DNA from: Lytechinus pictus
Taxonomy: Eukaryota
DNA length: 64,000 nt
Assembly (NCBI RefSeq): GCF_037042905.1
Contig: NC_087251.1
Span: 41,666,001 to 41,730,000 of the forward strand
Reading direction: 5' to 3'
The notes beneath the pieces were generated by a model that was given only the letters and a program-made list of their open reading frames with translations, had not been told where the DNA came from and made no database searches. Positions 9,120 to 54,846 of the stretch are shown here, piece after piece. A program made the translations under genes and the position numbers. Every line of letters begins with the position of its first letter. The first letter of the stretch is position 1.

Positions 9120-9282
9120 GGAATGAAAGTTGACAACTCTGATAAATTGTCAGCGCTGACAATTTCAGTGAAATCCTTGATTTTGATTGGCTAAGAAGCA
9201 CTGGTATATGGCTGTTACCATAGTAACTGTCGGAGTTGACAATTTGGTCAGTGCTGACAATTTTCGTGAAAGACCCTCCAGG
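9120..9282. mobile_element. Degenerate palindromic MITE-like remnant
   Basis: Two copies of the self-complementary motif (TT)GTCAG(C/T)GCTGACAATTT around a central GATTGGCT...GTTACCATAGTAAC core. One end is eroded. Confidence 0.4.
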
Positions 9283-17000: not shown

Positions 17001-19625
17001 CTTAGTTGTAGTTGATTGCAATTGATTTCCACGACAAACTAGATCTATTTATCATACTATTAGAAGAAATTGAATCCATTAATAGTTTGGTTGAAATTTC
17101 ATTTCATTATCAGCTTTGAACTTTCTTCCATTTTGGATTCACAAGATGTACTGATTGTTTGGTACTTTGAAAGTCTAATAATAATTACTGACTGTCAGAT
17201 CTGGATGGGGACTAATTCAGGGATCGTTGTTAAAGAGTGCGTGAAAGACGACTTCTTTATACAGACGATACCCTTCTTAACATCCCCTCCAAGGAGAGTT
17301 CGGGTGTCATTTCAATCCCAATGATGACGTTCACATTAGGAGAAGTTAGTCAGGGTTGAGGCAGATGATGCGATGCTTATAGCCTTCTCGGTACCCAGAT
17401 GCCGCAAAGCCTCGTGAAGGATGCGCTCGGTTTGGAAGGAGACAGGTATCGCCGTGAAAGCGCGGGAAACAACGCAGCATCGCAGACGGTATATAAGAGC
17501 TCTCAAGTTGAGAAGGGATTTCAAGAAGGAGGAGTGACTTCGGAGAATCCCTGAGGGAAAATGATAGGATGGAAGATAACTCGCATAGTTGACGCAAGAA
17601 GGGGGTATTTGTTAAACGGTGTCATCTGCGATTTCACTTTATTTGATCCTCAAGGAGACGAATCGATGTGGAGCACGGCGCGAAGAGCCTCGACCTCTTG
17701 GCAAAGTGCGATTTTTTGCAAAGATTTGTAGTCATCCGGAATTAAGAAAATTATTTGCCTTTTCACCATTTTGAGTGATGGAGTAAATGAGACATAAGTT
17801 ATCTATGCAGGATTAGGTTTGCAAACTACAATATTTTGTTCATTAATATTTTCAATCATGCTAAAAAGCGCTCAGAATAGTATTAAGCACTATAGAAATA
17901 TAACCTCCCATTTCAGTTAAGTACGAATTTAAACCAGTTTGTAATTATCTTATTGAAAAATATTTCAACATTTTGATGATTCATTAAGGATTTTTTTTTT
18001 TTTTTTTTGGGGGGGCAAAGTGAACTAAGTGTTTCTTACATCACAAAATAAGTCTTTTAATCGAGGCGCTCATTAATCATGTCGCTGCAAGAAATAAAAC
18101 AAATATTAGTCTCTATAAATAATAAGAAAGAAATTACAAAAAATTATGTATTATTTTCATAAATTTTATACCATGCTCTGACATCATTGGTATTAAGTCT
18201 CATATAATTAGATCAAAGGCACTTTGCCTTTATGAATTTTCATTTTTTGTAAAGATGTGCTATAAATGCGTGATATGTATATGTTTCTTTATGGAATGAA
18301 GGAGTGTTGAAGGTATGTATTTGCAATCGATGAATATTACAATCGCAGCTTTGCAACTCATAAATATTTCACTACAATAAGTCAATCTCGACTTTCCGTT
18401 GCGAGAAGCAATCTCATAATCTTATTACCCAACAAGATTAATTAGGGAGCCTGCAATTTACTTGTAAGTCTTTTGGTTGCACCTCTCACAAAAGAGCTGC
18501 AAAATTGTTGTTTATTAATCAATGACAATCAAATACACATCGATTGATTTATGATAAACTTGATTTCATATTTTAATCACAACATCAATGATATTTTTTA
18601 AATTTGAATGTAATTTGTCAACATAAATTATTAAAACAATCTCAATACGTTTGTTCAGAGGAGAGTTAGAAGACATTTAACATAATAAGTTCGATTACAA
18701 AGACGAGTGACCGATTTCACATGTTTCAGGAGCGTGGAATGTTTTCGTAGGAGTAAGAGGATGAATACAGGAGAAGTAACATTTTTGTTTGTGTTATAAT
18801 TTTTTAAAATAAAACTCCTAAATTCTTTAAGCGTTTTACTTTCTTATTCTTTTTCAGAAAATATTGAGAACAAAAATAATACGTAGTATTTTCCTGGCAG
18901 GCAACTAGGGATGGGTGAATGACCGTCAGAAAAGAAGTAAAACAAACATTAAGCGGAAAAAAACACAACATATTCCCACGAGCATTTCCTTTCTTAATCT
19001 GTCCATGTCAACAACAATAAAAACGATATAAATGTTTAATGGTGTCGGCATTGCGACGGTATGCTAAAGATGTTTAATGTTTTCGTGTTTGTACAATGTA
19101 TAGGAGAGATGGCTAGATGCGGGTAGCACTCTTGAGAGGTGTTTGTGACATTGCACGTCAGGATGTGTGTGTGTATTCACATTTTAATGACATTGTTTGA
19201 TCGATATTGTAGGCGTAAGATAATTCCTGCCCCCAGAATGAGGTGTGAATGGATGTCTTTTGATTGGGAAGAACCGAGAACCTTTACAAGATGCGGGTCG
19301 ATCTATTGTTTATCACTTCGTAGGAATGCGAGAAGAAAGCGCTTTGTCCGCCACCAAGTCTGTTGTGGACGGACAATAGACCGTGGAGGAGTTTTGTTTT
19401 CTTCGAATTTGCTGACTGACCATCGTGAATGAATGAATGAATGACGAGATCACATATGGATAGACTCATCGTGTTGTTCATTCTAATCGGTTTGCTTCCA
19501 GATTGATCTCGTACACACACTCTCACAAATCGCATTCGTTGCACTGTTGATTCAACCACTGCCAGGCCGGACCCAGAGCTGGACACTGATTTGCCTTGTA
19601 CTCCAAAATCGTATAACTTGTGACC

Positions 19626-23720: not shown

Positions 23721-24002
<282 letters not shown>

Positions 24003-24084
24003 TGAAGCGTTATAGAACACTTCCCTGCTCAGACACTCTCTCAACCACCTTATCACACACAATCATCATCCACCCCCTCATTTA

Positions 24085-24291
24085 CACAGCAAAAACGTTG
24101 TTTAAACGTTTATACAACAGTGTTTACTATAAGGTAGTTGTTTAACAATCTATAATTTATTGAAAACAAAATATTGAAAACCAAACTTTGTTGTCTAAGA
24201 TTTAAAACGCTTGTTTAATCCGCTTAAACAACTTCTGTAAGGTTTATCTGGTAAACAACGTTGTATAAAAATTAAACAGCCTTTTTCTGTA
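24085..24291. mobile_element. Short CACTA/EnSpm-like MITE
   Basis: CACAGCAAAAAC... / ...CTTTTTCTGTA ends, TA on both flanks, internal TTGTTTAAAC/TAAACAAC repeats. Confidence 0.5.
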
Positions 24292-24910
24292 TATATCTAC
24301 GTTTGATTGTCGATAAGACAGTGGCTTCCTGGTTTGTTCTGATATAAACGTAATTCGCAATCAAATATTAATAATTATTATCATTATTATTCATTTGACC
24401 AAACCATAAATAACGTGAATTCGGAAATTTGTAGAGCTCCAGAGATGATACTGAGAGAAAAAAAACTTGATGTCTTTACACGATTCGAACTGCATGCATA
24501 GGGAAGACCTAAAAAACAACCAATAGCTGACAGTGATATAAAAAAAAGGTTTGTTACTCATGAGTTCTAAAAGTGGATAGGTGGTTTCAAGAGCCAAAGA
24601 TTTGGAGACTATGACTTATACATATAGATATAGGTGCTCATGTAATCCCTACCCAAAAATCATCGTGCTTGCTGTGATATCTATATCATATATATAGAAA
24701 CAATCCTTTCAATGCCAACATATATTTCAGGACTATTCACTCATACATTCAGAAACATATCTCTAGTCTGGTACAATAGTTGATATCAAATCTGTTCTTT
24801 TGAGGGTAGTCATTTTATTAGCCCAAACCTGAAATTCAGTGAGTGTTGTCTCCAAAAAGTCGGTTTTTATTTTGTTTTAAAATAGAATAAGATGATAATT
24901 AGAAAGTTAA

Positions 24911-25483
24911 AGGGATGGTCCAGGCTGGAGATATATATATCTCAATAAATAGAGTAAAATGCTGATAATTTTGATCAAAGTCGGATAACAAATAACAAAG
25001 TTATTGAATTTTAAAGATTTCCACTATTCCAGTGAAATAGTTCTAAGCATGTCTTTGTGAATATTCATTAGGTGGGCTGATGTTGTCATATCCCCACTTG
25101 TTCTTTTGCATTTCATTATATGAAATTAGGATTATTCATTTTTTTTTCTACCAAGAACTAAAACAATTGGATTGACAACTGATTAAGTGCATTAGTTATT
25201 TATTGCTATAACTTATTTACTTATCAACACATGTATAAAATATGATGATGATTTTATGTAATAACATAAGAAAAAGGAAAGTGGGGATGTGACATCATCA
25301 GCCGCCTAATGAATATTCATGACGATGTGCATAATAACTGTTTTTTTTACAAAATATTGATAAAACTTAAAATTTAATGACATCGTTATTTGTAATCGGA
25401 TTTTGATGAAATTTTCAGCATTTTGCTCTGTGAATTTTACTCTATTTATTTAGATATAAATATTTTCAGCCCGGACCATCCCT
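24911..25483. mobile_element. TTAA-targeting palindromic MITE (Kolobok-like)
   Basis: TTAA-AGGGATGGTCCAGGCTG ... CAGCCCGGACCATCCCT-TTGA; long imperfect inverted arms. Internal motifs are shared with 57133-57736. Confidence 0.8.
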
Positions 25484-26406
25484 TTGATATTTCGATGTAG
25501 AAATTATAAGCTAATTTGCAGTGTAATTGGAGTACTTTTTATTATTATAAACCAGAAATGGTCCCTTCATACGACGCATGTGTGCTTAAGGGGTTTAATG
25601 ACCGCATGATCAATGATGAATTGTTATCTCTATGAGATATGAAACAATAGCCGTATTCCATTAACTCTTCACTCTTAAAACAATTTAGCGAAAATAGCTA
25701 TATTATAACCAAAAATGAATAAATCCAGCTCACTTTAACGTCTTCTCGCATACCACCACTACCCATGAATCTATATTCAAAGGTTCAATTTGTGTAAAGT
25801 ATTCTAATTTTCAATGAAAACTTTGTTTATAATCCTGCATGGAAATAACATGTAATGGAGACCGTTCCTATAATAGTCGAGAACATATAAAATCCCTCAG
25901 GATTTTCAACATAACGCACAATCCAAATACCGAAACAGTAACAATGTTTTCTATCTGGATGGGTCAATTAGGGACCTCTTTGAATGCTTTACCATTCATT
26001 CTTCATGACAGAGTAGTAACCATCAATTACAAGTGACAATATCAAAAGAAATCAAGGGTGAAATTAAACAGTCCTGCATATCATTATAAAGAAAAACATG
26101 ACTGGGATACTTATTCTGAATTGTACCTCTATATTATAAAGTATCTTTATGCGGCGTGTCTGGATTGCATATTACCGAAAACTATTAGTCCTTGCAGTAT
26201 TGACATTCAACAAAAAAATTGACATTTGTGGTCGAGTGTGACTTGTTTCTTGAACCCAGCCTCTTTTCATCCATCCTACTCGCGGAACATATCAAAGCAA
26301 AATTGTAAGATTGCTTTTCATACAAAAAACACGCGCAGTCCCGGCATTTGTTTTGATATGCAGCATTAGAAGTAGTGAATAATCGTTAATACCTCGTATG
26401 CCTTTG

Positions 26407-26566
26407 TAGTAGAGCGGCTAAGCACCAAAATCGTTCACTTTTTGAAGAAAGCATGAAATTTTGCACATGGTATCTATGATACATGAGGATTGTAAAAAAA
26501 AATGGATCAAAAAAAAAAGCGCCCTCTGGGGGCCGCCATTTTGAATTCCAATATGGCCGCCAAAAT
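26407..26566 (+). repeat. Left TIR of the Academ element
   Basis: Reverse complement of 37103-37272 apart from scattered substitutions and one 10-nt indel. Confidence 0.92.
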
Positions 26567-27496
26567 CATAATACTTTTGGCCATATCTCCTGTTCTATTG
26601 CACCTAGGACTGAGATTCAAACGTCTTTACCCATGTTTTCAGTGTCTAGGAACATGATGGCAGTGTTAAAATCTATGTCAGAGGTCCGCCATATTGAATT
26701 CCAAGATGGCCGACAAAATAAAATTACTTTTGCGCTCGTTTTGTGCAGGTTTTTTTTTTTTTTGCTATTTCACCTTGGAGTTAAATCTAAACGACCATTC
26801 CTGTGTTTTTTTGTCCAGAAAGTTATTACTTATTATCATAATCTATATCAGAAGTCTGCAAAATTGAAATTAAGAAATAACACCCTCTGGGGCCGCCATT
26901 TTGAATTCAAATATGGCTGCAGAAATCAACATACCCTCTGTCCATATTTAGGAGTTCAAGTGTTTTCGATGTCTAAAAAAACATTGCCAATGTCAGAACT
27001 TGCATCTGCGGTATTTGATTTCAAGATGGCCGCCTTGCTATTACACAATATATGTGACAATATACGATATGCCAATGATCATGATACCTTTGAACATATT
27101 TCAAATGAGCTCATTTCACCATATAGCCACAATATAGTCTTTTTGCAAACCTGTTAATACCTATATTTGCACGAAGACAAGCACACAGTTCAAACTTATA
27201 TATCCATTTTGGTGATTTGAAAAATTTTGGTTGTGTCAAAATCAGAGGATTCTCAGATGGCCACCATGTAGTCCGCGCTAGTGCAACCATTAGGCATTGA
27301 CATACCCAAAATAAGAGTGTTAGACAGTTGGATTCCCAGGTAAGGATGTTGGCTAACCTTGGAGTGTCTTGCAGAGGATCCAATAATCAGCGAACAATTA
27401 ACTGCACTGTTGATGAGATGTTTGTCGAGATTTTTGTGGTATAGATGAAAAATAAGGGATAAGGATGTCCTGTCCACATTTATCTATTCTGATCTC

Positions 27497-30400
27497 CTAC
27501 TTATAACATACCCCTCCACATTTGCAAAGTGCAGTACATTCCAGCTTTGTCTTGAAGCACTTGCAGTTTCCCTTGCAAGATTTGATGCAGTTACAGGAAA
27601 TTAATTCAAGACAAGCTGCTTCGGCGATGGGCAAGGTGGACCACTTAGGAACAAAACCATCTGATTCGGTCGATTCCCACCCCCATTCAGTGACATCAGG
27701 AATTTGAGGTTGTATTTCAAGTGATTGTCCCCACACATGGCCTGACTGGTAAGCTGATCGCTTGATGTGTTGTTCTAAGACAGCTCTTGTGGGAGGGATG
27801 TTCTCGATGTTTCTTTTCATTTTTGCGAAAAGTTCCATTCTGGCTTCATTGACACGAGTCTCATCACTGGTCCGGCAGTACATCAGGACAACGAATCGTT
27901 CAAGTTCTAGAACAACTTCATCTGGTAGTTGTGCTGTACACGGCCGTGACAGTGCAACAAACGTGTTGGTGATATCTGGCCATGCAAGCAAAGTTTTCCA
28001 TGCAGATTTCTTCCCGTGGTTGGCGAAGTAGGATGTTACATCACATCCAGTGAATGCGTGAAAGAAAAGCAATCCTTTGGCCATCTCTGGGGATATTGCA
28101 TGGGCAATCTCATGGATTGGAATGTACCTGAAATCCTTGCCAGTTCCAAAAGCTATCCAGAGTTGCTCGATGTCTGGCAAGTCCTGGAAATGGGCAAGAG
28201 CGAGCACAACAACATCAGTATCAACAGTTCGTATCATTGCTCTCTTGAACCCGCAGTTCATAGCATCTTTGACATGAAGAAGGATACGCGTATCTGCTTC
28301 TTCATGCGAGCATGGTTGAAGTCCATCTGTGGTGTAATCCTCTCTAGAGGTGACAACAGAGTCCAGTAGGGTGGAAATGATGACCTTGTCACCTGTGTCC
28401 TTGGAAACACATTGTTGTCCTAGGAATTGGAAGAGTTCATCCTTATTGTTATCATTCCGCAAGAAGTTTTTCCAGTTCCCTGGAAGCTTCACATTACCAG
28501 ACACCCTCTTCCTTGTGCCTGTACCTCTGTTTGCTCTTGTTGAAAGCTTTAAACTGTTCTTGAGATACACGTCCCAAACAAGATCAACCCGCTTGACCTT
28601 TCCAAGTTCAAACAAGATGTGCGGGATGAATACTTCCTGTGCATATTCAGCAAAGGTTTTTGATTCCTTAACTGGAATCAGATGCACAAGCGCCGCACCA
28701 TCAAGGATTGTCACATCTGTAGATGGAGTGTTTGTGACAGCTGACGGAGTATTGAGGAGAGTCTCTAGCAATCTAACCAGATCTGATTTGGTTCCTTGTT
28801 TAAGTGTTCCAGACGAAGAAAGTGATGGGGGATATTTTTGGTTTTCATGCTTGAAGAACTCTTTGATGTCACCTTCTCTTGTCTGACTGGCAATGTATAG
28901 TCGTGAGAACAATGCGCAGTCGCTCTTCAGATCTATTATTGTCTGCTTTTCCTTGGATGGACCCACATGCTTTCGATTGCGGAAAAGTGGAAGTGAATTT
29001 CGTTTGATGGGTGCACTGATGGGTGTTTCGTTTTTCAAGAGGCGTTCCTCGATGAAGGTTTCATACTTCTTCTCTCCCAGGGTGTGAACTTGCTCCATAC
29101 TCTCCACAACTTTCTGCGGCATGACTTCTTGTGAATCTATTGTTACCAATTCCTTTGAACGATCCATGAATGGATTCCCCAACTCATCCATTACAGCAAC
29201 AAGGGATCGCACATCATCAGCAAAGGATTTTTGCGCCGATGGACTCTGTTCATGATGCTTTGGATTAGTATCCACAGGTGACTTGTCAGCACTGCTCTCA
29301 TACTCTTCAATGACCATGGCTAGATGCGGCCCTGCCACCATCCATCGTCGTAGGGCACCTGGATCTTCTGTCAGACCGATGGCTCCTCCGTTACCCTTGA
29401 CTTGAGCATTCACCTGCTCATGCGCGTGATCCAAACCAATTGCAGAGTATAGATTCCCAGTTTTGTTTGATGTGAATGCACCACGCATGAAGTGTTCATG
29501 TACATCTGGGCACTGCTTGGCAAGTCTTGCCATGTCCTTAATGTGTACAGGGATCCAACGGGCATAGTGGATATGGTCTAGCGCAAAGAACCATGGAGCT
29601 AGTTGAGACAATGTCTGCACGTACAACTCAAAATTTGATGTCCGAATCGATCGCACAAATGCCAACAAAGTCAGTTCTAGATCAAGCACTGTGCTCCAAA
29701 ATCGAAACATAGGGTAGAACTTGCTTTGCTGCTCACACCATTCTGTGAAGCTCTCCTCGGCAACAGGATACTGATGGATGGCTGATTCTTTTTCCTTCCT
29801 GAAAGATTGCCTTTGGAGAATGTACAGTGAAGAAGCAGTAATTTGATGGGCTCTCCTTGTCCGTGCTACATGTGATGCATGAATGAAACTATCCGCTGTC
29901 CCTTGTGTAGCAACTCCTGCTTGGGCGATAGCATTACTCCAACCAGTCATATCCAGCAAATCACCAAGCATTTTCAAGACAGCCATTTCGATATGAAGAG
30001 GGCCTAACATCATCACATACTTGTCTTCACCATAGCGCTCTGGGAATCGCCACTGGATCTGTTTCCCAAGGGCATACAAAGGTTGGTCCATCGTCAATAC
30101 TGGTGTTTGTCCTGGGTTTAACAAGTGTGTTGCTTGTTGGTTTGTATACATGCAATGTATTATTGTTGCAAATGAGTGTGATACTTCACGAAATAATGGC
30201 ATCAGTGCAATTGTAGTCGGCAGCTTACATGTATGTTGCATCTGCATATTTGCATGGTATGCAGCCCATGACACAAAATCACCAACCGAAAGGTCACCTT
30301 CTTCCATCAAAGATAACTGCTTCTCAAGCCATTTTTTCTCATTAATGCGGTCTTCATCAAACTTGTCCCTATCTGGTCGCATTGGTCCGTACGTCACTGG

Positions 30401-31472
30401 TGCTTTGTATTCCTTCGGCATTGATGGTGCAGGCAAGATGTTTGTGTATGCCAGAGGAAGAGGATGGATTCGCTTGCCTGTCTCCATGTCAACGAGACCT
30501 ATCGGGTCAGCATCTGTTCCTTGATTGTTCTCAGTGGGGTGCTGACACAAGGAATGGGCAGTTCCATGAAAAGAGCCAACTGCTGTCGTTGCGCTGGGAT
30601 TATGATCAATGTTGTCAACCTGTCCTGTCGTGAAAAGATCTTTCTTCAACTGAGGCGGGCAGACTACTCCATTCTCCTCAAAGCGATTGATGATGCCATT
30701 TGCGATAGATGATGATATTTTGAGAACCCGATCATATGATATTGCCAATCCATGCTTGTGGAGGCTGTCAATCAATTCACGATTTCGTGTCTGCGCATGA
30801 ACTTTCAGGCCTATGTAAGTCGGTACAGGGACCTCTCTGTCAGCGTTATGTCGAACTGCATCTTTCTTCACACGATTGCCCTGTATGCTATTGAATATTA
30901 TGAGTTCACTAATGGTTCGAGCTGCTCGTGTCGACGAACCATCTTTTCGCGTCTGCGACTTGATACTCGGACCATCAAGGATCATATTGACCAGTGCCAG
31001 CAGTCTGCTAGGAACTGTGTTTTCAGCTGAATCATTTATCAAGGATCCATTGAATTTTCTGCCTTGGGAGAAAAGTTGCTTCCTGATAATTAAAGCTGCA
31101 TTTGCCAGTTGTAGCGCTTCAGAATCATCATCATCAAAGCATGTCATTTGGATGGCATCTCCGATCGCAGTGTCGTATGTCAGGAGAACATCTCTTCCTT
31201 GCCTCACAGCTTTCAGATATGGACAATGCAATAGGAGCCGCTCTTTAAGACGGGTTGAATTGACCTTTATCTCTGTATTGTCCGGACTCAGTTCCACCAG
31301 GCGCTCTGTGTACACAGAGACAAGGTCTACAAGACGGAAGACAGGAACACTAGGCCCAACCATCCTCCTTTCATCAATGTAAGAGATCAGCTCCGCAAGT
31401 GCGATACTTTTATGGGACGAGTCGTGACTGTCAGAAGAGCCTTGAAGTCTTGTGTTTCTCACCCGTTTATAC
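27497..31472 (-). CDS. Academ transposase coding exon 2: DDE-type core, XPG/FEN1-like nuclease, CXC/Cys8 finger
   Basis: Open for 1324 codons. Core motifs GQVDNIDH, LTMDQPLY, LGPLHIEM, DHAHEQ; nuclease motifs LDG, VWDVY, HEEADTR, DTDV, FTGCDVTSYFANHGKKSAW; C-terminal CNCIKSCKGNCKCFKTKLECTALCKC. CTCTCTACAG acceptor ends at 31473. Confidence 0.88.
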
Positions 31473-31838
31473 CTGTAGAGAGAATGTGAAACGTAAATTA
31501 ATGGGAAGTTTGAAGTCCAAAACATTTGTAAAATATCTGTTCAGAATTTAAATATTCTTTTGAATTTCATAAAATTTTATTTATTTTCAATTATATTTTG
31601 TATCAAGATCAGTTTAGAATGTTTCATTTATATTAAATCATAAATATAACACAGACATTCAAAAGCAAACACACAATTTTACATGCATTTATTTATCGAT
31701 GCCTAAGCACCAAAAGGAATTTTGCAATTTTGTGCTGGGAGGGTACATACTTTTATATATTCCTCTGAAAAAAAAGCAAATTTTGATATCATATTCTAAT
31801 ATCACCACCACACAGATCTTTGATACGATAACGCAATT

Positions 31839-32638
31839 CGTCGATGGGCTGATAAAACCTCGTATCTCAAAAAAGCAAACTTTTCAGGAGAGCGAAAAAA
31901 CTTTCTTATTTTAAGAAATTATGTGAATATTCTATGTTATTTGAACTGAATACTATGTTTGATAATTGAATTAATATGAGATGGTTGGAACGTGCAATAT
32001 ATAATTGTGAAGGGGATATAATGAGTTACGAGGTTTTGGCACAAGAAAAAAAATCATAAAATGAGATAGGAGGTTTTTGTACAAATTATGAAATTTGATA
32101 TATTTTATAAGAATATGCAACTCATCATTCTTTGTTATGACTATAAGAAGGTAAATTACACCTTACACTTCACATTCATGAACAAAAAAGAGTAATTTTA
32201 ACCTGAAAAAGAGTGATTTCATAAAAAATTAAGATACAAGGTTTTATCAACCCAGCGTACCTAACGTTCATGGGCTGTTAAAACCTCGTATCTCAAAAAA
32301 ACCGAAATTTTTAGTAAAACGAAGAAAACAATCTTCCTTTCAAGAAACCATGTGTGTAGGCAATGTTATTTGAACCTTAGACAATGTTTGTTAATCATTT
32401 CGATTATGTGAAGTGGTTGAAATGCACTAAATATAATTTAGAAGGCGGGAAATGGAGTTACGAGGTCTGTGCACTTGGCCAAATTTGAATAAAAAGTTGA
32501 GATACAAGGTTTTTTTAAAGATATACAACTCCTGGGGTTTTCAGGAGATGAATTATACCTTAAACATCACATTTATATTTAAAAAAAAAATCATTTTCAC
32601 AAAAATTTGAGATACGAGGTTTTATCAGCCGATCGACG
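31839..32638. mobile_element. Head-to-tail dimer of a ~400-bp MITE inside the transposase intron
   Basis: Outer TIRs CGTCGAT(G/C)GGCTGATAAAACCTCGTATCTCAAA at both ends; an internal TIR-TIR junction at about 32230-32300; the two halves are alignable direct repeats. Confidence 0.75.
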
Positions 32639-33085
32639 GCATGTATCAGCATCAAACGATATAAAGCCTGGTATGAAACAAAAGATTTGAGGAAAACTTT
32701 TTACTAATTTTCTGGAAGGTTGCTATTTGACCATTAGTTATTTACAAATATGTGAGTGCAGTCTCATTTTGTTAGTAGATTTGAACATTTTGGTCTGTGA
32801 AAAAAAAAAAAAATCTGATATGCACTTTTCCTATGATCGTAAACTTTGTATTATTATATTTAACTGTTTGAAAGTTAATTTGAAATCATTATTCTTCCCA
32901 CCAAAATACTACAACCATAGAGATATAAAAACATGGCACATGATTTGTGGGCAGTGTCTACTTTTTGTCAATCTAGGCAGCTATCAACATTTAAAACTCT
33001 CCATAATCCTTTACTTATATTTCATGTTGCAATGAAACATCATCATAGGTCGCCCCTCACACCAATTTCTCATAAATCAACTCAC

Positions 33086-33732
33086 CTGTTGTATAGATCC
33101 GACAGGCAAGTCTTGTGATACTTTGCATCCAGTGCTATCATATCACCTGGGGCCAATTTAGCCAGGAGTCTTGTATCTTGAAGCTCTGTGGCATTCTTTC
33201 GAACTGTCTGGTCTATCCCAGTTGTTGTAACATCATGCAGTCCTGCAGTTCCAGCTTCTTTATCACAGAAAAAGCAAAGAGCTTGTTTCTGTCCAGTGGA
33301 ATGGTAGTCTTGAACACTAGTCCGTCTCACTTTAACTCTGCTGCTGCAGCTGATACCGTTGTCTGGTTCTAGTTCACGCTTTTCTATTTGCCGATCCAAT
33401 CTCATGTCACTGAACATATTCCGGCAAGTCTTATGCCACATTGCTTTGTTCGTTTGTAATGTCTCTTCAATGCCAGACCCATCGTCTAATTGTTCAGGAA
33501 CAACATTCAAAGGAACTTTGCCTAGTTCTTTAAATTTTAACAGATTTGTTGCGAATGACTGATAACTTGTCCCTTTAGCTTCATGATTCCCTCGCCCTCT
33601 ACCCTTCCAAGGCTGGGTAAGATATTCAGACGATTTCTCTTGACAGAGAATGCAGAGGGTCCAGTCCAATGGCGGCCGCTTTACTTCAGCCATTTCGCCA
33701 GGCTTTACTAGTCTGAACAGCTTCGACATCAT
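33086..33732 (-). CDS. Academ transposase coding exon 1 (two CxxC...HxxC putative zinc-binding units)
   Basis: ORF with LDWTLCILCQ...WHKTC and CFFCD...YHKTC. AACAG|GTGAG donor (phase 2) splices to 31472 in frame, giving ...LYN-R-YKRVRN. Confidence 0.85.
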
Positions 33733-33949
33733 GCATCACACAAGTGCTGCTGGACTGTGGGTAGCATCTGCACATCGGCACACTTGCTAACTGTTGCTAT
33801 TCTCAACCCTGATTATCTTCCTCTTGATCCTGGAAAAAAAAAAGAAGAAATGGCTTATGATAAAGCGATAAGCAATAATCATGATGAAAGACTTGTAAGA
33901 ATATAGCAAAAAGTGTTAAAAACTTCTCAATGAAGGTTTTAGCCAAATG

Positions 33950-34413
33950 CAGTGCTGCCAACACTGCGTGAGACATTTTAAATATTACTTGGCACGGTGA
34001 AACAGGCAACTAAAACAAAATTTACACAATGATTTGAATGAAAAAGATGAAGCATACTTCCAACAGCTGAATCAAATATTTTGTTCATTAGACAATGATA
34101 TCTATTGCTTAAAAAAGTATTCGTTTGAGTGTCAAAATAATTCTCTTTATTACTGGGTGTATTGGCAGGGATCTTTGTTTTATTTTGAAATAACTTATTT
34201 TTAAATAACAAAGGCATTTATTTCAGCTGCTGCAGCTTTTTGGATGGCTTATTTTTAAAGAATAAAGGCATTTGTATCAGCTAATACAGCTGGTTGGAAA
34301 GTTCTTGGCTTTATTCTATTGTTTATATTCTGTATTTATTTGCTGAAGTACTACCTTAGCAGCTAAAATATTGCCTTAAGCTTCAAATGTCTCACGCCAT
34401 GTTGACAGCCCTG
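33950..34413. mobile_element. MITE with CAG...CTG ends (hAT-like) nested in the Academ 5' region
   Basis: TIR CAGTGCTGCCAACACTGCGTGAGACATTT / AAATGTCTCACGCCATGTTGACAGCCCTG; degenerate flanking duplication CAAATG/CAAATA; absent from the paralogous site at about 35145-35165. Confidence 0.7.
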
Positions 34414-37102
34414 CAAATACGATATAATCATAGTGTAATGCACGGTGACCATCTTGTGGTGTATCATGACAGGCTGTATTTCAAAATACAAAAAAAAAGA
34501 ATACGAAAACATCTTTATGGAATGCAAATATTTGATTCATCAGCCCCCTCCCCCCAAAAAAAATCTTTAAATGTCCAGCAAACATATCATACCCCACTGT
34601 TTTCAGTTTCTTTTACACATCTTCTTTAAGAGACAATTATAATGAATGAATGCTAAACTCACCTAATTTTGTCCAACCAGAAGTCTATGCCTTTGGAAAG
34701 GAGGGTGCGTGTCTTCAGAAGAGAGGGTGATTGTCTTCTTCACTATCTGATGAACAGAAAGAGAAAAAAGAAATGTTTTCACCCTTTTCATGCTTTTCTA
34801 CATACAATGGAGACCAAAGTTAGATAATATTGTATTAAATTTTAAATTAAAATAGGATGGGGTTAGGTGTTAACAAAAGTAAACTGTCTATTTTTATTTT
34901 CAATTTTGCTAAAATTATGCATCAGATGATACAAAATATCATGAATATAATTTTGAAGTAACATAAGCAATAATTCTCAAGAGATTCATAAAATAATCAA
35001 TGCCATCTTGTTGAAATTAGAATTCTAAAATCGTATGTTCGGATACCCAACCTTTCCGGACGCTCAAAAATGCAATAATCACGGGGAAAGACTTGTAAGA
35101 ATATAGGGGGAAAAAAAGGTCAAAACTTCTCAATAAATGTTTTAGCCAAATACAACAAAATCATAGTGTGAAACACGGTGGTCATCTTGGCGTGTATCAT
35201 GACAGGCTGTATTTCACACAAGCCCTGTCACAATTACGACGAAGAATACAAAAATATCTTTATGGAATGCAATATTAGATTCATCAAACCCTCCCCCCCC
35301 CCATTTCAAGAAAATATATCATACCCAACTGTTCTTTGTTTCTCTTATGCATCTTCTTTAAGATACCATTATGATGAATGAATGCTAAACTTACCTAATT
35401 GTGTCCAACCAGAAGTCCATGTCTTTGGAAGAGAGGGTGTATGTCTTCTTCACTATCTGATGAACAGAAAGAGAGAAAAAAAAATGTTCATAAACTTCTT
35501 AAGCTTTTCTGAAATGGAGACCAAACTGGGTACCATTGCATTAAAAGAATGTGGGTTGGGTGTCCAGAGGCTTAACAAAAATAAATTGTCTAGTTTTTAT
35601 TTTCAATTTTGCCAAAATGATGCACCCGATAATAGAAAATATCATGAATATATCTCATTTTGAATAATACTAGTATTAATTCTCAAGAAATTCATAAAAT
35701 AATTAATGCCATCTTGTTGAAATTAGAATACTAAAATTGTTTGGATACCCAACCTGTCCGGACATTCAAGAACTAGGTATAGTCTACACTGTATTCTAGA
35801 AAGAGAATTGAAATTTCTATTGTTGCCAACTTGAGGAAGGAATGGCAATTGCCTCTGCTGCAACACCATTCCTGTCCTGAATGGATTAGAGTAGGTACAT
35901 TTTCTACTTTTTTATATTTATAAACAAAAAGAATGATATTCAAATACACTGTGCATTGATCTTAAATTATCTTTAATGAATTAACTCCATTGCTTTTTCA
36001 GTCAAGGTCTACAAGACTACATTATGGTCCTGATGTAGGTCTAGACTAAGTTTAGATATACATGCTTTTGATTACTTTACACCACATTTATTCTATAAAG
36101 GAGACAATAATAGTTGTATTCTAGTGAATCCTTTCTTGAATTCACAATTTCAGTGAAATCTATGATACCATATTATGCCTGGATCCTATCCTGGCTTCGG
36201 CCTAATGATCCTGAATTCGAGGCTAGGCTAGACTACCTTAGGGACTTAGGCTTAGCTAAGGCTTAGGCCTAATTGAAAGATCACAAAAATCTATGATGAC
36301 TCAACATTTTAATTCTCTTCAAAATTACCAGTGGAGACTGCATGTATACAACTTCATTTGACTGTTAAAAACTCTTCTGAATGATCATAGATCTATATTT
36401 GTAGACCTAGAGGTCTATGTAAATCTAGGCATACGTGCAAACATCACTTCTGTCAACCCGACATGATTTTGACTGGATGGGACTGGTGAACAGTACAACT
36501 ATTTAACATGAAAAATATTGGAAATATAAGCATTTATCTTGATAAAAATGTATTGTTTCATAACAACTACAGCATTGAAATATCATTTTCTACATGAGTT
36601 AATGCTAAACTTAGCAGAGACTTACCAGAGTAGACTGCCAAGAGATGTCAATAGATGAACAAAACTTTTGACCAACCAGAATGAAGCAGCTGTCCATATC
36701 TCCACAACAGAGGGCGCATGTCTTATTCACTTTTGTGATTCTGAAGAACTTGTCATTACTCTCTTTCAAGGGTTATAACTTTTTGGTAAAAAGTGTAATA
36801 ATCACCAACTTTTCACAATCTATTCAGCATACTTGAGGATATTTTTAAAAATTTATTTGATGACATTTAGTTGAATAATGATCATTTGATAGAATTTTGA
36901 ATCTCATGGTAAATCTGCAATTTTCAGAAAAATGTAAAACAAATAGGTTTTACTCCCATTATCAATAGAAACGAAAATTTTAAAAAAATCTTAATTGGTT
37001 CCATTATGCTAAGAATTTAATTTTCTTTAAATCCATACCTCATACATGTTTAAAACATGTTTTACAAGAAAGTTATAAGCTATTTTGTACGCTGGTGTTA
37101 AA

Positions 37103-37272
37103 ATTTTGGCGGCCATATTGGAATTCAAAATGGCGGCCGCCAGAGGGCGCTATTTTTTTGGATCCATTTTTTTTAATGATCCCTAATTATCATAGATACT
37201 ATGTGCAAAGTTTCACGCTTTCTTCAAAAAGTGAACGATTTGGATGTATTTTGGGTCTTAGCCGCTCCACTA
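37103..37272 (-). repeat. Right TIR of the Academ element
   Basis: Inverted copy of 26407-26566, ending CCACTA followed by the TSD TTG. Confidence 0.92.
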
Positions 37273-40200
37273 TTGTGCAAACCGTTTGACTATGTACATG
37301 CAGATTTAGTATGCTAATCCTTCGATCATTTCGTCTACTCGAGAACGCACTCCCGAGGATTACACCTACACTAACACGTAATCTACACTTTATTTTTTTT
37401 CCATGCATCTATGGCAGTAATTTGCCAGACTACTAGCCCTGGTGTGCTGCACCATGCAGACATCTCCTTACTGTGGGAAAAGGGAATTAATTCGCTACTT
37501 TCCACTAAGTGCATGGTTCACTACTATTTTTTCTCATATTTTCTGGATGAAAAAAAAAGAAAGAGAATGGAATTCTCAGGTTTCTACTTGTTCTTGCTAG
37601 ATTGTCGGTGTAACCAAGAAAAAGAGAATAGAGGAGTATTGTGAGTCGGGTGCTTGAGCCGCGGGGGATTGGAGTAGGCTCACAATAGACCAATCTTACA
37701 TTCAAACACTCAAAGACCATTGCAGTGCCTTGGGCGGCGGGATACGTGAATACTCGCTGGCTTGTCTAATTAGCCCCGCTTTCAATGTTCAGAGGTACCC
37801 CTCTACCAGCATGTCGCCCCCATTGATATACCCCTAGCACAACCCGTTACCAGTGGAATGCAAGAAACAGACAGGACTTGGGACCCACGTGTGGTTTACG
37901 GAGTCTCAAAGACCACAGGTGTACGCTACTTTGCTCCTTTTTCATTTTCGCCGAGTCTTTTGTCGGCTTCAAATGAATGAAGGTGAAAGAAAGAAGAAAA
38001 AAAGAGAGGGAGAGAGAAAAGAAAGAAATCACCATGGAAGTGCCTCGGGGTGTGAACGTGTGGTAAGAAGTGAGTTGGAGTCTATAAATGATGACTTGTT
38101 AATGTATTCTGGTAGTTAGAGTGTCAGGGTGACCCTCATGAACTTCACCACAAGTTCTTCTTTCCTTACCCTGCCATTTTTGAACACGGTAATTGACCGA
38201 AATCTGAATCCCAAGTCTCGATTAGAAACCTCGCCTGGTATTGTGAGTTGCTGACTAGCCATCCATTGTTCAACGGGCTGTTTTGTGCGACTTTCCTGCA
38301 TGTTCGTAAGAAAAGGGAAGAAAATTGTGACAGGTATCTGGAACAGCAACCCTCTGGTCCATTGAAACGTGCCCACCAAAAAAAAATGAAGGCCACTCAA
38401 ACTTGAACTACTTGCTACCATCTGAAACCTATCTTCGAAAGTCGACACGGGGTAATTTAACAAGCCTGGTTTATGAACGATGCTCTTATTTGTTAAGCAC
38501 AGAAACGTGGCCTAATTCACGGTCAATCAACTTGTAGTCATGAATCGAGTCCCAACTCCCCTGTTATTCACCAAACCCATTTTCCATTTCCCCTCGCAAA
38601 CAATTCTCATTCCATTTCGACTTCGATGTAGAGAGCGTTGTCACTCCGTTAAAAAATGCCAAAATCTCAAAACAGCACAAGTGCCACAACGTTGATTCAG
38701 TCACTGTATAATATTTTGAAGGTCGAACATTAAAACATCTTTGGTCGAGCATTTCGAAAATCGAGCATTTCAAATATTTCTTTGATTTCTTCTTTTTAAT
38801 AGTACAAAATTATTTTTTAGGATATTTCATTAAATAAGTACTAATTTCGAAAGATACTTATCTTCAAAGGGAGAGGACTTATTTTTGGAGGAGGAAGGGG
38901 GAAGGGTTCCGACCTATAAGGGTGGGGCTCATGTACTTGAAGAATCTCTGAGGTTTCTCTTTCATAATGGGATGGGGTAATACATGCGATTGTTCTCGTT
39001 TCTCTTACTCCCCCTTAATCAAATGAAACAGTTTTGTTTACGAACAAACACGCACGCTCATCCACTTTTCCCCCACTCTCACCAGCATGACCAACACTCT
39101 CTCTACAAGTTCCTTTCACAAAAGATCGCTGAAGTTGAAAGAAGATGAACAAAAACAAACTTCCATTAGAAGGCCATAGTTTTGGTGCAGTCGGTTAATA
39201 TAACCAAACGCAACAACGGATCAAAATTCAAGATGAACTTTTGGGGTTTTTGATAGAAAAGTCGACCCCCTCGGTACTTGCGTACTTGACTCTAGAAAAA
39301 AGACATAAATGAGTGACTTAAATCATGCGAACTATCTAGATACTCTCGATGGTCTATGTTTCAATCTGAACTCTCGGTGCATTTTTGTAACTGTACTGTA
39401 TATCACTGGGTTTTTACATTAAGCATGATTGCACTAAAGACTGTTAATTAGTGATGCAATTAGCAGTGTTTTCTAACCTATTATCATCATGATCATTAGA
39501 GGTGTTTGACGATCCGTCAAGTAGGAAGGAAGTGGCGTAAAAGCCCCCGTCTTCTGAACTACATAATTATTCCGTCGTAATTGTTTCATCTGCTCTCGAA
39601 TCTGCTGATGTACAATCATTACCTCATCAACATTACATGTAATTTGCTCCCGATGTATACCTGAAGAAATTGAGAAGAGAATGCAGTTCGAGCTGACATT
39701 CTTGCATCGGGGTGACGGCGAGACAGAAATTAATTATTAGATGATGAGGGGGATGCCAGGTACTTAACGCTCCATGATTAATTAAGCCGTGATTGGGTAA
39801 TTTTGATTGTCGTCGTCCGATTGAGATTAGCATACTTCAGAAGAACAAAAAGAAGACAATTGACAATTGAATAATGTCGAATGAAACTGGTGTGAATGAA
39901 TATTCTATATCGTTTCAATATTTCTGTAATATTATTTTCGCGAAGGAGTGGATTTTCGGATGCATTTCCGAAAATGGCTGCTTATCGAAATCGGTATTAC
40001 TTACACCAGACAATTCAAGATTGCTACGTTGATCTATCCAAACAAATTATGGAGATAATACTTATTAGATAGGCCTCCGGGATATACTTCATTTTCTATA
40101 TAATTATATACGCATTTTATACATCTTTGTACACTCAGATTTAATTTCAAATTCAATTTCACTAAAGAGAATTATCACAATGCAAAAAGCTATGAGAAAC

Positions 40201-41551
40201 ACCCGAAAACATTTTTATTTTATTTGAACATTCATATGGATGTTTGACGAAGACATCATTAGTGCTCGGTATAACACCTTTAAAAAAATATTTTTTACCA
40301 TTACCCGCCGTTGGTTAATCATGGTTTTTATTCGTGGCGGATTACTCATAGCGATGCGTACAAATAGCACACACATTTCTCACTCTATATGGGTGAATAT
40401 GCACCCATGGAATAACCGCAATGCTATTTAAAGTGTCCCATGCTCAAACACAAAGTACGTTCTCTTTACACAAGCCCCGCTCTCTGTGTGCTTGCGTTCA
40501 AATCAATAAAGCTATCGCTCTTACGTAACAATTTGATATGGACCGAGTAGTGCCTGTCTTTACCATTTTTCCCCATTTCTTAAGTTGCATTGACCATTAA
40601 CTTAAGAGCTCGAATAACCAGAAAGCTGACATAAAGTTTATGGGAAAAAATGTAGGCTTATATCAAGCATACATTCAGTGAGTCGATTGAAGCTCACTTT
40701 ATAAACTCATACAAGAACGCTAAGATGAAACATTTGAAAGTTAAAAATTGTAAGATTGTTAAATATCACTGTTGCTGGATATGTTGCAATGATGGTTGCT
40801 ATAAGTTCACATATCAATCAGTCTCCCTTTTTACACAGCATTTTATAACGCACATTAATTTTCATGCCCACTGCAACTGCTTGAGGTCGATATTGTACAA
40901 ATGATTTGAAACAATGTATACAGATCAATAATCATAACTTGTATCAAAGACTTAAAAGTGTATCGGGTAATCCCTCTATATCTACAGTTGAAATGGTTTA
41001 TCCTTGAAACCACTTTGCAAGACTGCAAATTGAAATAAAGTTTGGGAGGGTGACTAAAGAATAAACTGCACTCCTGCAGGATTCATTTTCGCCTAAGTTT
41101 GAGGCAAGTCCTACATGTACATGCTTTTGTGGAAAAAACAAATCAGCTTTGTTGGAATGGTTCTCCGAGTGCATTCTCATTACCGATCGATTGTTTGGAC
41201 CGGTCCGTATACAGAGACCGGTCCCATCAACTCGGCAGGAGTTCCCTGCTTGGTGGAACCTTAATGCTTACCCTGTGTACTGAGTAATTATTGACATTGA
41301 GTAGGTTGGGTTGAAGGACCTCTCGCCAAGTTGTGTACAGATTAACCCACAGCGAGTAATGAAGAATGGTCGGAATAAGGAGGGGGGGTATAACGATAAT
41401 GGACTTTCATGAGAATCATCCAAATAGCTGACCAAATGCATTATCTAACATGACAGTCTGATGAATTGAAACGTATTTCGTATATTGACGTTATATATTT
41501 TGTGAATGTTGTTTGATTAATGGTCTTTTATTTTTCATTACTTTTCTTTAG

Positions 41552-42139
41552 GTTTGGTTCAAAAACAGAAGAGCAAAATGCAGACAACAGCAACAGCAGC
41601 AACAGAACGGTCCGAACAGCAACAGCACAACGAACAAACCGCGTCCTGCAAAGAAGAAAACGCCACCGCCGACACCGCGTGAACCCGACGCGCCTACCAC
41701 CACATCGAGCGATACACCGCCTTTCAAAGCATCGCCATCCGTCTCGTCGAGCATGCCCAATAACAACAGTATTTGGAGCCCGGCATCGATAGCCCCTCAG
41801 CCCATGACAAGTGATCATTTATCAGCAAACATGAGTAATAACAGTTGTATGCAGCATTCCTACACCATGCCTAACGCGCAACCCGCTGCAGGCTACACAG
41901 CGCAGGGTTACCAGTCACCGTACTTTGGCGCCGGCCTTGACTACCTCTCTCATATGCCGCAATTCCCCGGCGCCATCAACCACCAGATGGCATCGAGTGC
42001 TATGAATAACGGGCCGATGACCACCATGGCGTCGCAGCTGCCTCCACCCCACCACGCCCATATGCCCATGGGCTCGATGTCGAGTGCAGAGTGTATCGAC
42101 GGTAAAGAACAGCCGCAATGGAAGTTCCAATCCTTGTAA
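41552..42139 (+). CDS. Otx: Otx last exon: VWFKNRRAKCRQQQ (K50), SIWSPASI motif, Otx tail DGKEQPQWKFQSL
   Basis: TTTTCTTTAG acceptor ends at 41551, phase 0 with 23948; 195 codons plus stop. K50, the WSP motif and the C-terminal WKFQxL are diagnostic for Otx. Confidence 0.98.
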   Translation, partial: VWFKNRRAKCRQQQQQQQNGPNSNSTTNKPRPAKKKTPPPTPREPDAPTTTSSDTPPFKASPSVSSSMPNNNSIWSPASIAPQPMTSDHLSANMSNNSCMQHSYTMPNAQPAAGYTAQGYQSPYFGAGLDYLSHMPQFPGAINHQMASSAMNNGPMTTMASQLPPPHHAHMPMGSMSSAECIDGKEQPQWKFQSL

Positions 42140-52048: not shown

Positions 52049-54846
52049 ATGCCTGATACTAGAAGTACAAAGCCTCAGACCAGTGGCGTACCTAGGATTT
52101 TTCACAGGGGGGGGCAAATTCGTCCGCCAAAAAAATTTGACAAGCAAAAAAAAAAAAAAAAAAAAAAGTGTCTTCAAGACTCGTCAGGGGGGGGGGGCAG
52201 TCTGCACCCTTTGCCCCCCGTAGGTACGCTTGTGCCTCAGACCCAGTCCCAGGTTCCTGTAAAGGAAATTATAAGAGAAAGAAGCAGTCATACAGACAAT
52301 GAATGATAAATATTCAAGAACTTTGAGAAGCTTATAGATAAAGTAGAACAGCAAGAAGGAAAGATTCATGAACTTGAAAATCAAGTGGATAGAGTAGAGC
52401 ATGAAATAACAAATCTCAGAGCACAGGCAGAATGTCAAAATGAATGCATACAAAAGTTGCAAATGGCCCTAAATGACCAGGAGCAGTACTTGAGTCTCCT
52501 TTTGATATCAAACCAAGGAAATGCTCTTTTACTTTTTGCGAAGAATTCAGTGCTAATTATAGAAAATATGATAATAGTTTTTCACTACTTCATGTCAATA
52601 AATTGTAGGAGTTTATGCCAGAATTTCCATGCATTTTGTTCAATGTTAGCTTGCATAAATCATAAAGTTACAGCCATTGGTGTGACAGAGACCTGTTCAG
52701 TCAAGTACAAAAACTGAGATGTGTAATATAGATGGTTATAATCTTGTATACATAAACAGACAACATAAATTAGGAGGTGGTGTTGCCATTTATATAGATG
52801 AAAGGTATGATTTTATAATACGATCAGATCTGAATTGTAACATGCCTGAATGTGATATGCTGTTTTTAGAATTAAGATGTAAGAATTATAAACCAATGGA
52901 TGTGTTTATAGAGTTCCCAACACAAATATGGAGATTTGTCTGGATCAATTGGGTAATTGTTTAGATATTGTTAATAAGAATAATACAGAGGTCTACATTT
53001 TGGGTGATTACAACATTAATTTATTGAATGCAAGTACTCATGATAAAACAAATGTATTTTTGGAAAATATGTTTTCTCACAACCTGTACCCATTGATAAC
53101 GAAACCAAAAAGGATATCAAAAACATGTGCAACGTTAATAGATAACATTTTTTGTAATACACTACTGAGATAATAATATTGACTCTGGCTTGTTCATAGC
53201 TGACATATCAGACCACTTACCTATATTTTGTGTAAAGAAACTCAAAATGATTTTTAATCAATGGCAGTCACAATTACCAAAAAGACAGATAAATGATGAT
53301 AATATAATTAAATTTAATAGAACACTGTGTGAAGTTGATAGGAGTCATGTACTATAGTACTGATGATGCTAATAATTGTTACGATATTTTTATGTCAATC
53401 TTCCACTCAATCTATAATAAATGTTTTCCAGAAATGAAGTCAAAATCAAAAGCGAACGTTACTTTTAGGAAACCTTGGCTATCAAATGGCCTCATGAAAT
53501 CCATAAATAAGAAGAATAAAATGTATAAAAATTTACTGAACAATTATTCTGACAAGCAAAAGAAAAGTTACATTAAGTACAAAAACAAATTGATAAACTT
53601 ATTACGCAGTGCTAAATCCGAATATTATTCTAAACTCTTTAATCAAATTAGAGGAAACACACAAAGGATTTGGAATAACATAAATAATATACTGGGTAAT
53701 CAACGCTTTAAGAAGTTACCTTCAGTTATGTATTGCAATGATTCAAAGTTAAATTCATCAAAAGATATAGTAGAGCATTTTAATTCTTATTTTTTGAATA
53801 TCGGTAAGAATATTGCTGACAGAATTCCTCCTGTGGGTGTGTCATATGATTCATTTTTAACCGGAAACAAATCACCGAACTCTTTGTTCTTCAGACCTAC
53901 TTCTCCATATGAAATATTAAAAATTGTCCTTTCCTTAAATTCTTCAAAATCAAGCGGCCCCGATGGTATAGATCATAGAGTTATAAAGAAATCTATTCAT
54001 TATTTCATTGAGCCACTATGTTTTATATTTAATACATCAATTTCTACAGGAATTATGCCTAATCATCTGAAATTTGCCAAGGTAGTACCAGTTTTCAAAA
54101 AAGGAAATGCAAACGATTTAACTAATTATAGACCAATTGCTATCCTTCCTGTATTTTCAAAGATTCTTGAAAAAATAATTCATGAACGTTTATATAAATT
54201 TTTACAGATAAATAATTTGTTAACTGATGCTCAATTTGGCTTCAGGAAAAAATTCTCGACTTCATTAGCTGTCCCTAATTTATGTACTTATATTCAAAAT
54301 GAAATTGAAAAGGATAATTTTTGCATTAGACTTTTTATGGACTTGTCAAAGGTCTTGCCCTTAAATGGTTTGAAGATTATCTATCTCACAGAAGTCAATA
54401 TGTGATGGTCAATGGTGTCAATTCCTCTATACAGCATCTCAACTGTGGTGTCCCTCAAGGATCTGTCTTGGACCTTCTCTTGTTCCTTATATATGTCAAT
54501 GATATTATCAAATCTTCTTCTCTTCTCAAGTTTTCCCTGTTTGCCGACGATACTTGTGCACTCATGAGAAGCAGTAACATTAAAACAATTGTCTTGTCGG
54601 TAAACGGGGAAATAGCAAAAGTCTCTACCTGGTTCAAAGCAAATAAATTATCTCTGAATATAGCCAAAAACAAACTGTTTATAATTGTAAATTTTGTCAA
54701 TGTTATTGTTATGGGGGCCATTCTCTACAAGCAGTTTGCTTTTTTATGGTCCTAGCAATATTTTGTACCATTTATTACATAATTATGTACACTGTATGAT
54801 TTGTATATACATATTTTTATGGTTGAATAAAATTGAATTGAATTGA
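52049..54846 (+). pseudogene. Decayed CR1/L2-group LINE: ORF1 remnant, APE endonuclease and reverse transcriptase, with frameshifts and deletions
   Basis: Coiled-coil ORF1 piece (52049-52490). APE motifs SINCRSL, GVTET, GGGVAIY, LGDYNINLL, LIDNIF, SDHLPIF; RT motifs GPDGI, NYRPIAILPVFSKILEK, QFGFR, MDLSK, GVPQGSVL, FADDT split over several frames. 3' stem-loop and (TTGAA)n tail. Confidence 0.92.
52081..52234. mobile_element. hAT-like MITE inserted in LINE ORF1
   Basis: Perfect 8-bp TSD CCTCAGAC (52073-52080, 52235-52242); TIR CAGTGGCGTACCTA / TAGGTACGCTTGTG. Confidence 0.85.

Follow-up and report, generated by a model that had tools for sequence, protein, structure and literature searches.

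Judged from their sequences, the ends of Academ DNA transposons are two-layered: an outer region of about 105 bp is common to the families, and inside it lies a variable slot of about 55 bp, at about TIR positions 110–165. A YY1-like word that matches its consensus recurs in this slot, and comparison of the ends indicates that it is conserved beyond chance; a CTCF-like word stands there in a few ends, among them both ends of the element described here. We regard the chances as evenly balanced that host factors bind to such words, next to the sites used by the transposase, and maintain or mould the ends so that transposition can take place. The element lies in the window, by which we mean the whole 64,000-nucleotide stretch of Lytechinus pictus DNA that was analysed. 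The papers cited below by identifier were each drawn on in part, and statements about them refer to the parts used.

The homeobox of the Otx gene in the window is split by a 17,603-nt intron (23949–41551), and the element lies inside this intron (Table 1). By sequence comparison and structure prediction it is an AcademX element, as its TSD of 3 bp, its DDE transposase with a nuclease fold and its long TIRs with TAG ends indicate; the Academ identity and the location in the Otx intron that an earlier note on this DNA had proposed are thus borne out by the TIRs, the TSD, the transposase and the Otx exons on both sides. The two TIRs align over 152 nt at 88%. AcademX elements are described in PMC10045372 as having a 3–4-bp TSD and a transposase with a nuclease, and the window element is like that lineage in its 3-bp TSD, in its DDE transposase fused to a domain of 5′-nuclease fold and in its long TIRs. 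Bivalve Academ elements have a mean length of 5.6 kb (PMC10294476); the window element, at 10.9 kb and with an intron, is about twice as long. An internal duplication of about 700 bp (85% identity, 34571–35743) in the long 5′ non-coding region helps to explain this size, and within the transposase intron lies a nested high-copy repeat that has short inverted repeats (31829–32645). The same Otx intron also holds a very high-copy MITE with 52-nt inverted ends (24909–25485), which is related to 57153–57717. Elsewhere in the window there are at least nine dispersed copies of a GCTCGCGCTTCGCGCTCGCA-type word (58772–61218), a 21-bp tandem array (63273–64000) and broken LINE-like reverse-transcriptase frames (52310–54755), whose identity was read from their translation.

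Table 1. Features of the AcademX element and its surroundings (window coordinates)
Feature	Coordinates	Strand	Basis
AcademX DNA transposon, 10,866 bp, ends TAG...CTA	26407..37272	- (that of the transposase)	end location and empty-allele junction
TSD TTG, left copy (3 bp)	26404..26406	+	single copy kept in empty allele
TSD TTG, right copy (3 bp)	37273..37275	+	single copy kept in empty allele
Left TIR, the 3′ and "short" end of the element	26407..26566	+	TIR alignment
Right TIR, the 5′ and "long" end of the element, spacing of boxes A and B longer by 10 bp	37103..37272	-	TIR alignment
Outer boxes A (TIR 1–16) and B (TIR 25–58), left end, putative transposase sites	26407..26464	+	common to Academ families
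Outer boxes A and B, right end, putative transposase sites	37205..37272	-	common to Academ families
CTCF-like 14-mer, left, one mismatch, facing outward from the element, at TIR position 113	26519..26532	-	consensus match
CTCF-like 14-mer, right, exact, facing outward from the element, at TIR position 123	37137..37150	+	consensus match
Third CTCF-like word, two mismatches, background level	36704..36717	+	consensus match
YY1-like inverted pair, left TIR (26532–26542 and 26550–26560)	26532..26560	.	pattern match
YY1-like inverted pair, right TIR (37109–37119 and 37127–37137)	37109..37137	.	pattern match
YY1-like inverted pair, second copy, left subterminal, no CTCF-like word	26685..26712	.	repeat and pattern match
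YY1-like inverted pair, third copy, left subterminal, no CTCF-like word	26892..26920	.	repeat and pattern match
Single YY1-like word	27023..27033	+	pattern match
Transposase coding exon 1, Cys/His-rich N-terminus	33086..33732	-	GT-AG and open frame; splice predicted
Transposase coding exon 2: winged-helix-like domain, DDE core, XPG/FEN1-type nuclease, Cys-rich C-terminus	27497..31472	-	frame, alignment, models
Otx exon, first homeobox part, start approximate	23797..23948	+	sequence; spliced Otx in runs
Otx exon, end of homeobox and C-terminus	41552..42139	+	sequence; spliced Otx in runs

Two minus-strand exons joined across a predicted GT-AG intron of 1613 nt give an intact transposase frame of 1540 aa, in which the DDE residues D502, D678 and E901 are conserved in the alignment. 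The model of the DDE core (pLDDT 84.9) has the P-element transposase as its best structural match (Z 10.9, rmsd 4.9, 337 aligned), followed by Hermes and integrases; Foldseek returned no match to this model at E 0.001. The nuclease model (pLDDT 93.8) matches Xrn1/2, flap endonucleases, Exo1 and XPG, with a best E of 2.4e-5, and the winged-helix-like domain of the transposase model was found at Z about 6, as one among many generic matches. No helicase frame is present among the ORFs of at least 100 aa in the element. Pfam has no family for the window transposase (DUF6589 is found in seven of the 30 members of the alignment), and a PDB sequence search with it gave nothing useful. Relatives of the transposase occur in cnidarians, an annelid, a crab and a fish (seven named among the 120 relatives listed), and viral contigs had neither a transposase relative nor a match to the TIR word. 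The TAG ends and the Cys-rich C-terminus fit what we take to be typical Academ features.

A metagenome scan confirmed 579 stretches, of which the best 80 yielded 73 loci (691,454 bp). With an outer-TIR profile, 68 ends with a terminus were placed, and three of these were dropped (one misplaced and two extra degenerate); the resulting set of 65 ends represents 37 families, the window and L001 being counted as one, and these families are related to one another, so that counts of them are not independent. The ends have in common a box A (TIR positions 1–16), a box B (25–58) and a box C (about 90–102), and agreement with the window per 10-nt block is 0.51–0.72 over TIR positions 1–60 as against 0.26–0.35 over positions 101–185. 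In all 18 two-ended elements, that is, the window element (26423 versus 37247–37256) and 17 related loci, the spacing between boxes A and B differs by 8–11 bp, or one helical turn, between the two ends; the long end is the 5′ end in 16 of them and the 3′ end in two. Decay was considered as the cause of the 10-bp gap in the left TIR of the window and was rejected, since this gap is the long/short end rule of the family. The TSD is a clean 3 bp in nine of the 18 elements and 2 bp in three, and six have none. Among the related loci, L045 has an internal inverted duplication of box B in one end (9062–9176, 12799), and in L043 a single-exon Ig-NACHT-LRR gene (14125–18204) that belongs to a large family (120 relatives listed) adjoins the Academ copy. 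An Academ cluster at 90% identity near L032 and L034 (protein P0008), in which the ends have YY1-like pairs, has named members in a fish and a crab, and this suggests transfer between phyla.

The YY1 and CTCF words had been named ahead of seeing the related loci, so that the tests on these two are not post hoc. The patterns used, AANATGGCNGC for YY1 and the 14-mer CCRSYAGRKGGCRS for CTCF, are consensus words and not real matrices, and for the word tests the slot was counted as TIR positions 100–175. All five motif strings listed in the earlier note are present in the window at the positions it gave, and the counts show that they are not random: the YY1-like pattern has nine matches in the window where 0.37 are expected, seven of them within the element's ends, and the CTCF-like pattern at up to two mismatches has three where 0.23 are expected. 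The YY1-like word turned out to be half of an inverted pair, the second half of which the note had lacked. This pair stands at TIR positions 126, 279 and 486, and there are more YY1-like units at the 3′ end of the window element than at its 5′ end.

Across the survey, the YY1-like word is found in the slot in 13 of the 37 families; it is found in none of the 37 outer TIRs, in two and none of 37 in the inner regions, and in one of 34 flanks. Each of 300 letter-shuffled decoy words was found in the slot of at most one of the 37 families, and dinucleotide shuffles gave a mean of 0.13 and a maximum of 2. With the window's family left out, 12 of 36 families still have the word in the slot, and its density is 6.35 per kb in slots as against 0.036 elsewhere. 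An unbiased count of slot 8-mers has the YY1-like word at its top, and 34 of the 40 YY1-like matches in the first 600 bases lie at positions 100–149. The word forms an inverted pair in nine of the 37 families, and L001 has the pair twice at each end. When the presence of the word is placed on a transposase tree of 39 rows (eight near-duplicates left out), it is scattered, with eight changes needed to account for the 14 rows that have it, which is not expected from one fixed transposase specificity.

CTCF-type words are found in the slots of two of the 37 families, and independent support comes from one family, L006. The exact 14-mer occurs only twice in the 691,454 bp of the 73 loci, and these two matches are the two TIRs of L006, where the words stand at positions 113 and 123 and point outward, in the same register and orientation as in the window. 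A clade of the window, L001 and L006 is rejected (p-AU 3e-58; this group was named after the first tree had been seen). The decoy fraction for the CTCF word is 0.0025 for exact matches, 0.05 at one mismatch and 0.36 at two, and L001 has two mismatches in this register. In L012 the register reads TTGACCTTTGGCGACC, with 11 of 16 letters equal to those of the window; L008 and L016 have 10 of 16, and L044 is similar. The L012-type word would be a related box, which resembles a nuclear-receptor direct repeat and to which CTCF is not expected to bind, and the CTCF word itself may have arisen by drift within a broader box at this register.

Some details that the earlier note had attached to the CTCF-like words did not hold. 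The overlap of the CTCF and YY1 words that it described in each TIR is indeed present in the window, but the two words are separate in L006, and the overlap was rejected as a conserved design. The third CTCF-like site, which it had placed at 36702–36718, is at background level and was rejected as meaningful: it has two mismatches, five of the eight window matches to CCRSYAGRKGGCRS with two mismatches allowed lie outside the element, and the closest relative, L001, has no alignable counterpart. The TIR places the same word on the left and on the right; the divergent orientation of the two is therefore automatic and amounts to one observation rather than two.

Slot words other than YY1 and CTCF were noticed by eye before they were tested and are post hoc; a GC-box is found in two, a CRE in two, an RFX word in one, an E-box in one and a nuclear-receptor repeat in four of the 37 families. 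The core panel minus YY1 and CTCF has words in four of 37 slots and in three of 37 in one inner region, the slots of 21 of the 37 families contain none of the 11 core panel words, and 11 of the 18 panel words (NRF1, ETS, NFY, AP1, ZNF143, BANP, MEF2, TATA, E2F, REST and P53) show no slot excess. TGACCT repeats, which are nuclear-receptor-like, occupy the slot in one assembly across several transposase clades (L012 at 12918, L029 at 12123, L031, L044, L069, L016 and L045). Slot content may track the host, although the comparisons of one assembly with the rest are not significant for the nuclear-receptor half-site (five of 13 versus two of 24 families, p 0.07), the YY1 word (four of 13 versus nine of 24, p 0.73) or the CTCF word (none of 13 versus two of 24, p 0.53).

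The insertion is not fixed but segregating, and an exact empty allele exists, as seen in a single contig. This contig, from run X3 (organism A), joins 25620–26403 directly to 37273–37983 with one TTG left; it has a depth of 2.46 and 778 and 710 letters on the two sides at about 99% identity, and it lacks exactly the element and one TSD copy. A flank contig of organism B ends exactly at 37273, which is consistent with an empty site, and the site is probably also empty in this relative. Run X9 of organism B has the transposase (27681–33810) at about 98–99% identity and the Otx intron flank at only about 90–95%; the high identity of the transposase may be due to coding constraint, recent shared activity or horizontal transfer. 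The TIR bins in organism B are deeper (197 and 105 as against 6–27, depth not being equal to copy number), and they suggest TIR-bearing derivatives. Otx is spliced straight across the intron in runs X1, X3 and X21, which need not carry the insertion, and runs with spliced Otx contain family sequence as well. Run X21 has no reads over the element, a weak observation since the left intron flank is also thin (0.17–0.38). A 5567-nt contig of run X1 joins 36022 to 31558 and so skips 4.46 kb, with transposase exon 1 among the missing sequence; it also shows a deletion of 5 bp at 28799 and may be a deletion derivative or an odd splice form.

The earlier note took the two outward-facing words for a divergent boundary signal and the element for a cassette that repartitions the Otx enhancers. 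As a host-adopted, orientation-dependent CTCF boundary or loop this can be given hardly any credence, even though the two words, which lie within Otx, point outward and fit the consensus, and TE-borne CTCF sites are loop anchors in mammals (PMC7786948). The orientation is forced by the symmetry of the TIRs, and in the parts of PMC13317027 used here echinoderm boundary CTCF motifs have no orientation pattern and no loop-anchor enrichment, so the divergent pair is not supported as a boundary signal. An adopted function in repartitioning enhancers is likewise unsupported in view of the empty allele in the species, probably shared by the relative, and Otx is spliced across the intron in the three runs named above. 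According to the same source, echinoderm CTCF is missing two zinc fingers, and its motifs are overrepresented both at echinoderm boundaries and in open chromatin that is not dynamic. The sea-urchin protein is divergent and binds weakly in mouse cells (bioRxiv 2026.10.19.759930), and its weak binding to mammalian chromatin is accompanied by no rescue of loops or insulation in the parts of these reports used (bioRxiv 2026.10.19.760054, 2026.10.19.759930). Invertebrate CTCF prefers a 3′ cytosine (bioRxiv 2026.10.19.759930), and both TIR words of the window end in one; together with the boundary and open-chromatin motifs this makes CTCF binding plausible, but not a vertebrate-type divergent boundary. 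Host factors might also serve the element by insulating or silencing it, with CTCF forming a barrier whatever its orientation and YY1 recruiting Polycomb, so that read-in is limited and the insertion is tolerable to the host. The words at both ends, the enrichment of echinoderm boundary CTCF motifs regardless of orientation (PMC13317027), the YY1-bound silencers of mariner (PMC4777549), and the placement of a 10.9-kb insertion within an essential gene's intron would agree with this. It is nevertheless distinctly unlikely, as the slot adjoins the transposase boxes at a fixed register, activator words fill it in other families, CTCF-type words are limited to just two of the 37, and sea-urchin CTCF gave no insulation in mammalian cells in the parts used of the two reports (bioRxiv 2026.10.19.760054, 2026.10.19.759930). 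That the slot drives transcription of the element itself, as a promoter or enhancer, is very improbable: YY1 marks ubiquitous promoters in amphioxus (PMC6292497), invertebrate CTCF is promoter-biased (bioRxiv 2026.10.19.759930, bioRxiv 2020.05.07.078311), the 5′ TIR is upstream of the transposase gene and family sequence accompanies spliced Otx in the runs, but some 3.4 kb separate that TIR from the start codon, and the greater number of YY1-like units at the 3′ end counts against a promoter-only role.

The words could instead belong to the transposase, the slot words being subterminal transposase sites, the YY1-like pair a dimer site repeated inward and the CTCF look a product of drift in a conserved box at TIR 113–128. 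Such a reading would account for the inward repeats of the pair in the window and, twice per end, in L001, which are like the subterminal repeats of other DNA transposons, for the frequency of inverted pairs among the families, and for the related word in the CTCF register of several of them; moreover, the transposase has a winged-helix-like domain and Cys-rich modules of its own. We think it unlikely, however, in that the YY1-like word is missing in 24 of the 37 families, although the outer boxes are common to them and their transposases are about as close to that of the window as those of most carriers; the word is scattered over the transposase tree, and the words that replace it are unrelated in sequence and resemble other host-factor words. 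Nor is there much to be said for a slot kept for fold-back into a hairpin or cruciform, with the factor-like words as by-products of palindromy, a reading to which we attach scarcely any probability. RFX-, CRE- and E-box-like words are indeed palindromic, and the folding z is below -2 in ten of 37 slots as against three and four of 37 control regions. This excess, however, comes from the YY1 pairs: slots without a YY1-like word have a mean folding z of -0.57, with three of 26 below -2, similar to the controls; L050, L060 and L067, with a single YY1-like word, have positive folding z; and the CTCF, GC-box and direct-repeat words are not palindromes. The hairpin was accordingly rejected as a general cause of the slot.

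A side remark of the earlier note, that the ends may recruit host factors, fares better, and the presence of slot words beyond chance across families lends it support. If host factors do bind beside the transposase sites, outer boxes A–C, whose conservation is seen directly, would be what the transposase binds and cuts, and the inner slot of about 55 bp would hold look-alike sites for ubiquitous host DNA-binding proteins, presumably occupied by them, with YY1 the commonest, CTCF found in two or more distant families, and other factors elsewhere. CTCF and YY1 motifs are hallmarks of constitutively open chromatin, in echinoderms as in amphioxus (PMC13317027, PMC6292497), and YY1 binds mariner DNA in EMSA (PMC4777549). 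A constitutive host factor docked by each end might leave that end nucleosome-poor, perhaps unmethylated, or bent or bridged, and an open or bridged end would allow the transposase to load and to pair the ends wherever a copy lands. Sp1, CTCF and RFX sites are said, in work by Lienert in 2011, to keep DNA unmethylated in mammals. Any of several factors would suffice, and the slot could thus turn over while the outer boxes persist. The function would most likely be selfish, in that the words would be kept by selection on transposition rather than by a benefit to Otx, and any effect of this copy on Otx would be a side effect.

Host proteins that act at transposon ends and aid paired-end assembly include IHF and HU in bacterial elements and HMGB1 in Sleeping Beauty and RAG; those are loosely specific bending proteins, whereas the Academ candidates are sequence-specific factors that appear to be interchangeable. 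The mammalian TE-borne CTCF sites (B2 SINE, HERV, MER20; PMC7786948) are likewise CTCF-like words spread by mobile elements. Here, in contrast, an intact cut-and-paste element has the word within its TIR, at a constant spacing from the cut site, and the lineage is one that lacks orientation-dependent looping; host adoption is not implied. Mariner is also a DNA transposon with repeated YY1 sites, but these act in silencing and lie in the last 300 bp of its coding region (PMC4777549), whereas the Academ words occur in both TIRs, often in the form of inverted pairs, and give way to other factor-like words from one family to another. RAG signals and Transib ends, with their 12/23 rule (PMC1131882), resemble Academ in that the conserved boxes of the two ends are spaced one helical turn apart; Academ is another superfamily, and the likeness concerns the spacing of boxes A and B, not the slot or a pairing rule. 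TE-borne CTCF sites (PMC7786948) and YY1 sites in mariner (PMC4777549) are thus known, and a host-factor slot in Academ TIRs would be new; we found no paper on host-factor words in Academ TIRs among those compared (including the part of PMC12784935 used), and a prior note in Kojima 2020 or Repbase is possible.

More broadly, we tentatively suggest, as a proposal that goes well beyond the window and is itself rather doubtful, that Academ elements across animals have, inside each end and always at the same distance, a host-factor socket whose content can be exchanged: families would plug in sites for YY1, CTCF, RFX, Sp/KLF, CREB, USF or nuclear receptors and thereby open their ends, in step with a RAG-like long/short rule. 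Such a socket touches on two open questions, how a transposase gains access to ends that lie in chromatin and what reason mobile elements have for carrying sites of host factors at all. Most work on such sites concerns their later adoption by the host; here they keep a constant register next to what are presumably the transposase boxes, and one site is exchanged for another from family to family. The filled and empty Otx alleles form a natural pair for asking whether the two CTCF-like words insulate in an echinoderm. If the proposal is true, Academ elements would have seeded invertebrate genomes with sites of constitutively open chromatin, CTCF sites among them, for their own selfish benefit, earlier than and separately from any role of CTCF in looping.
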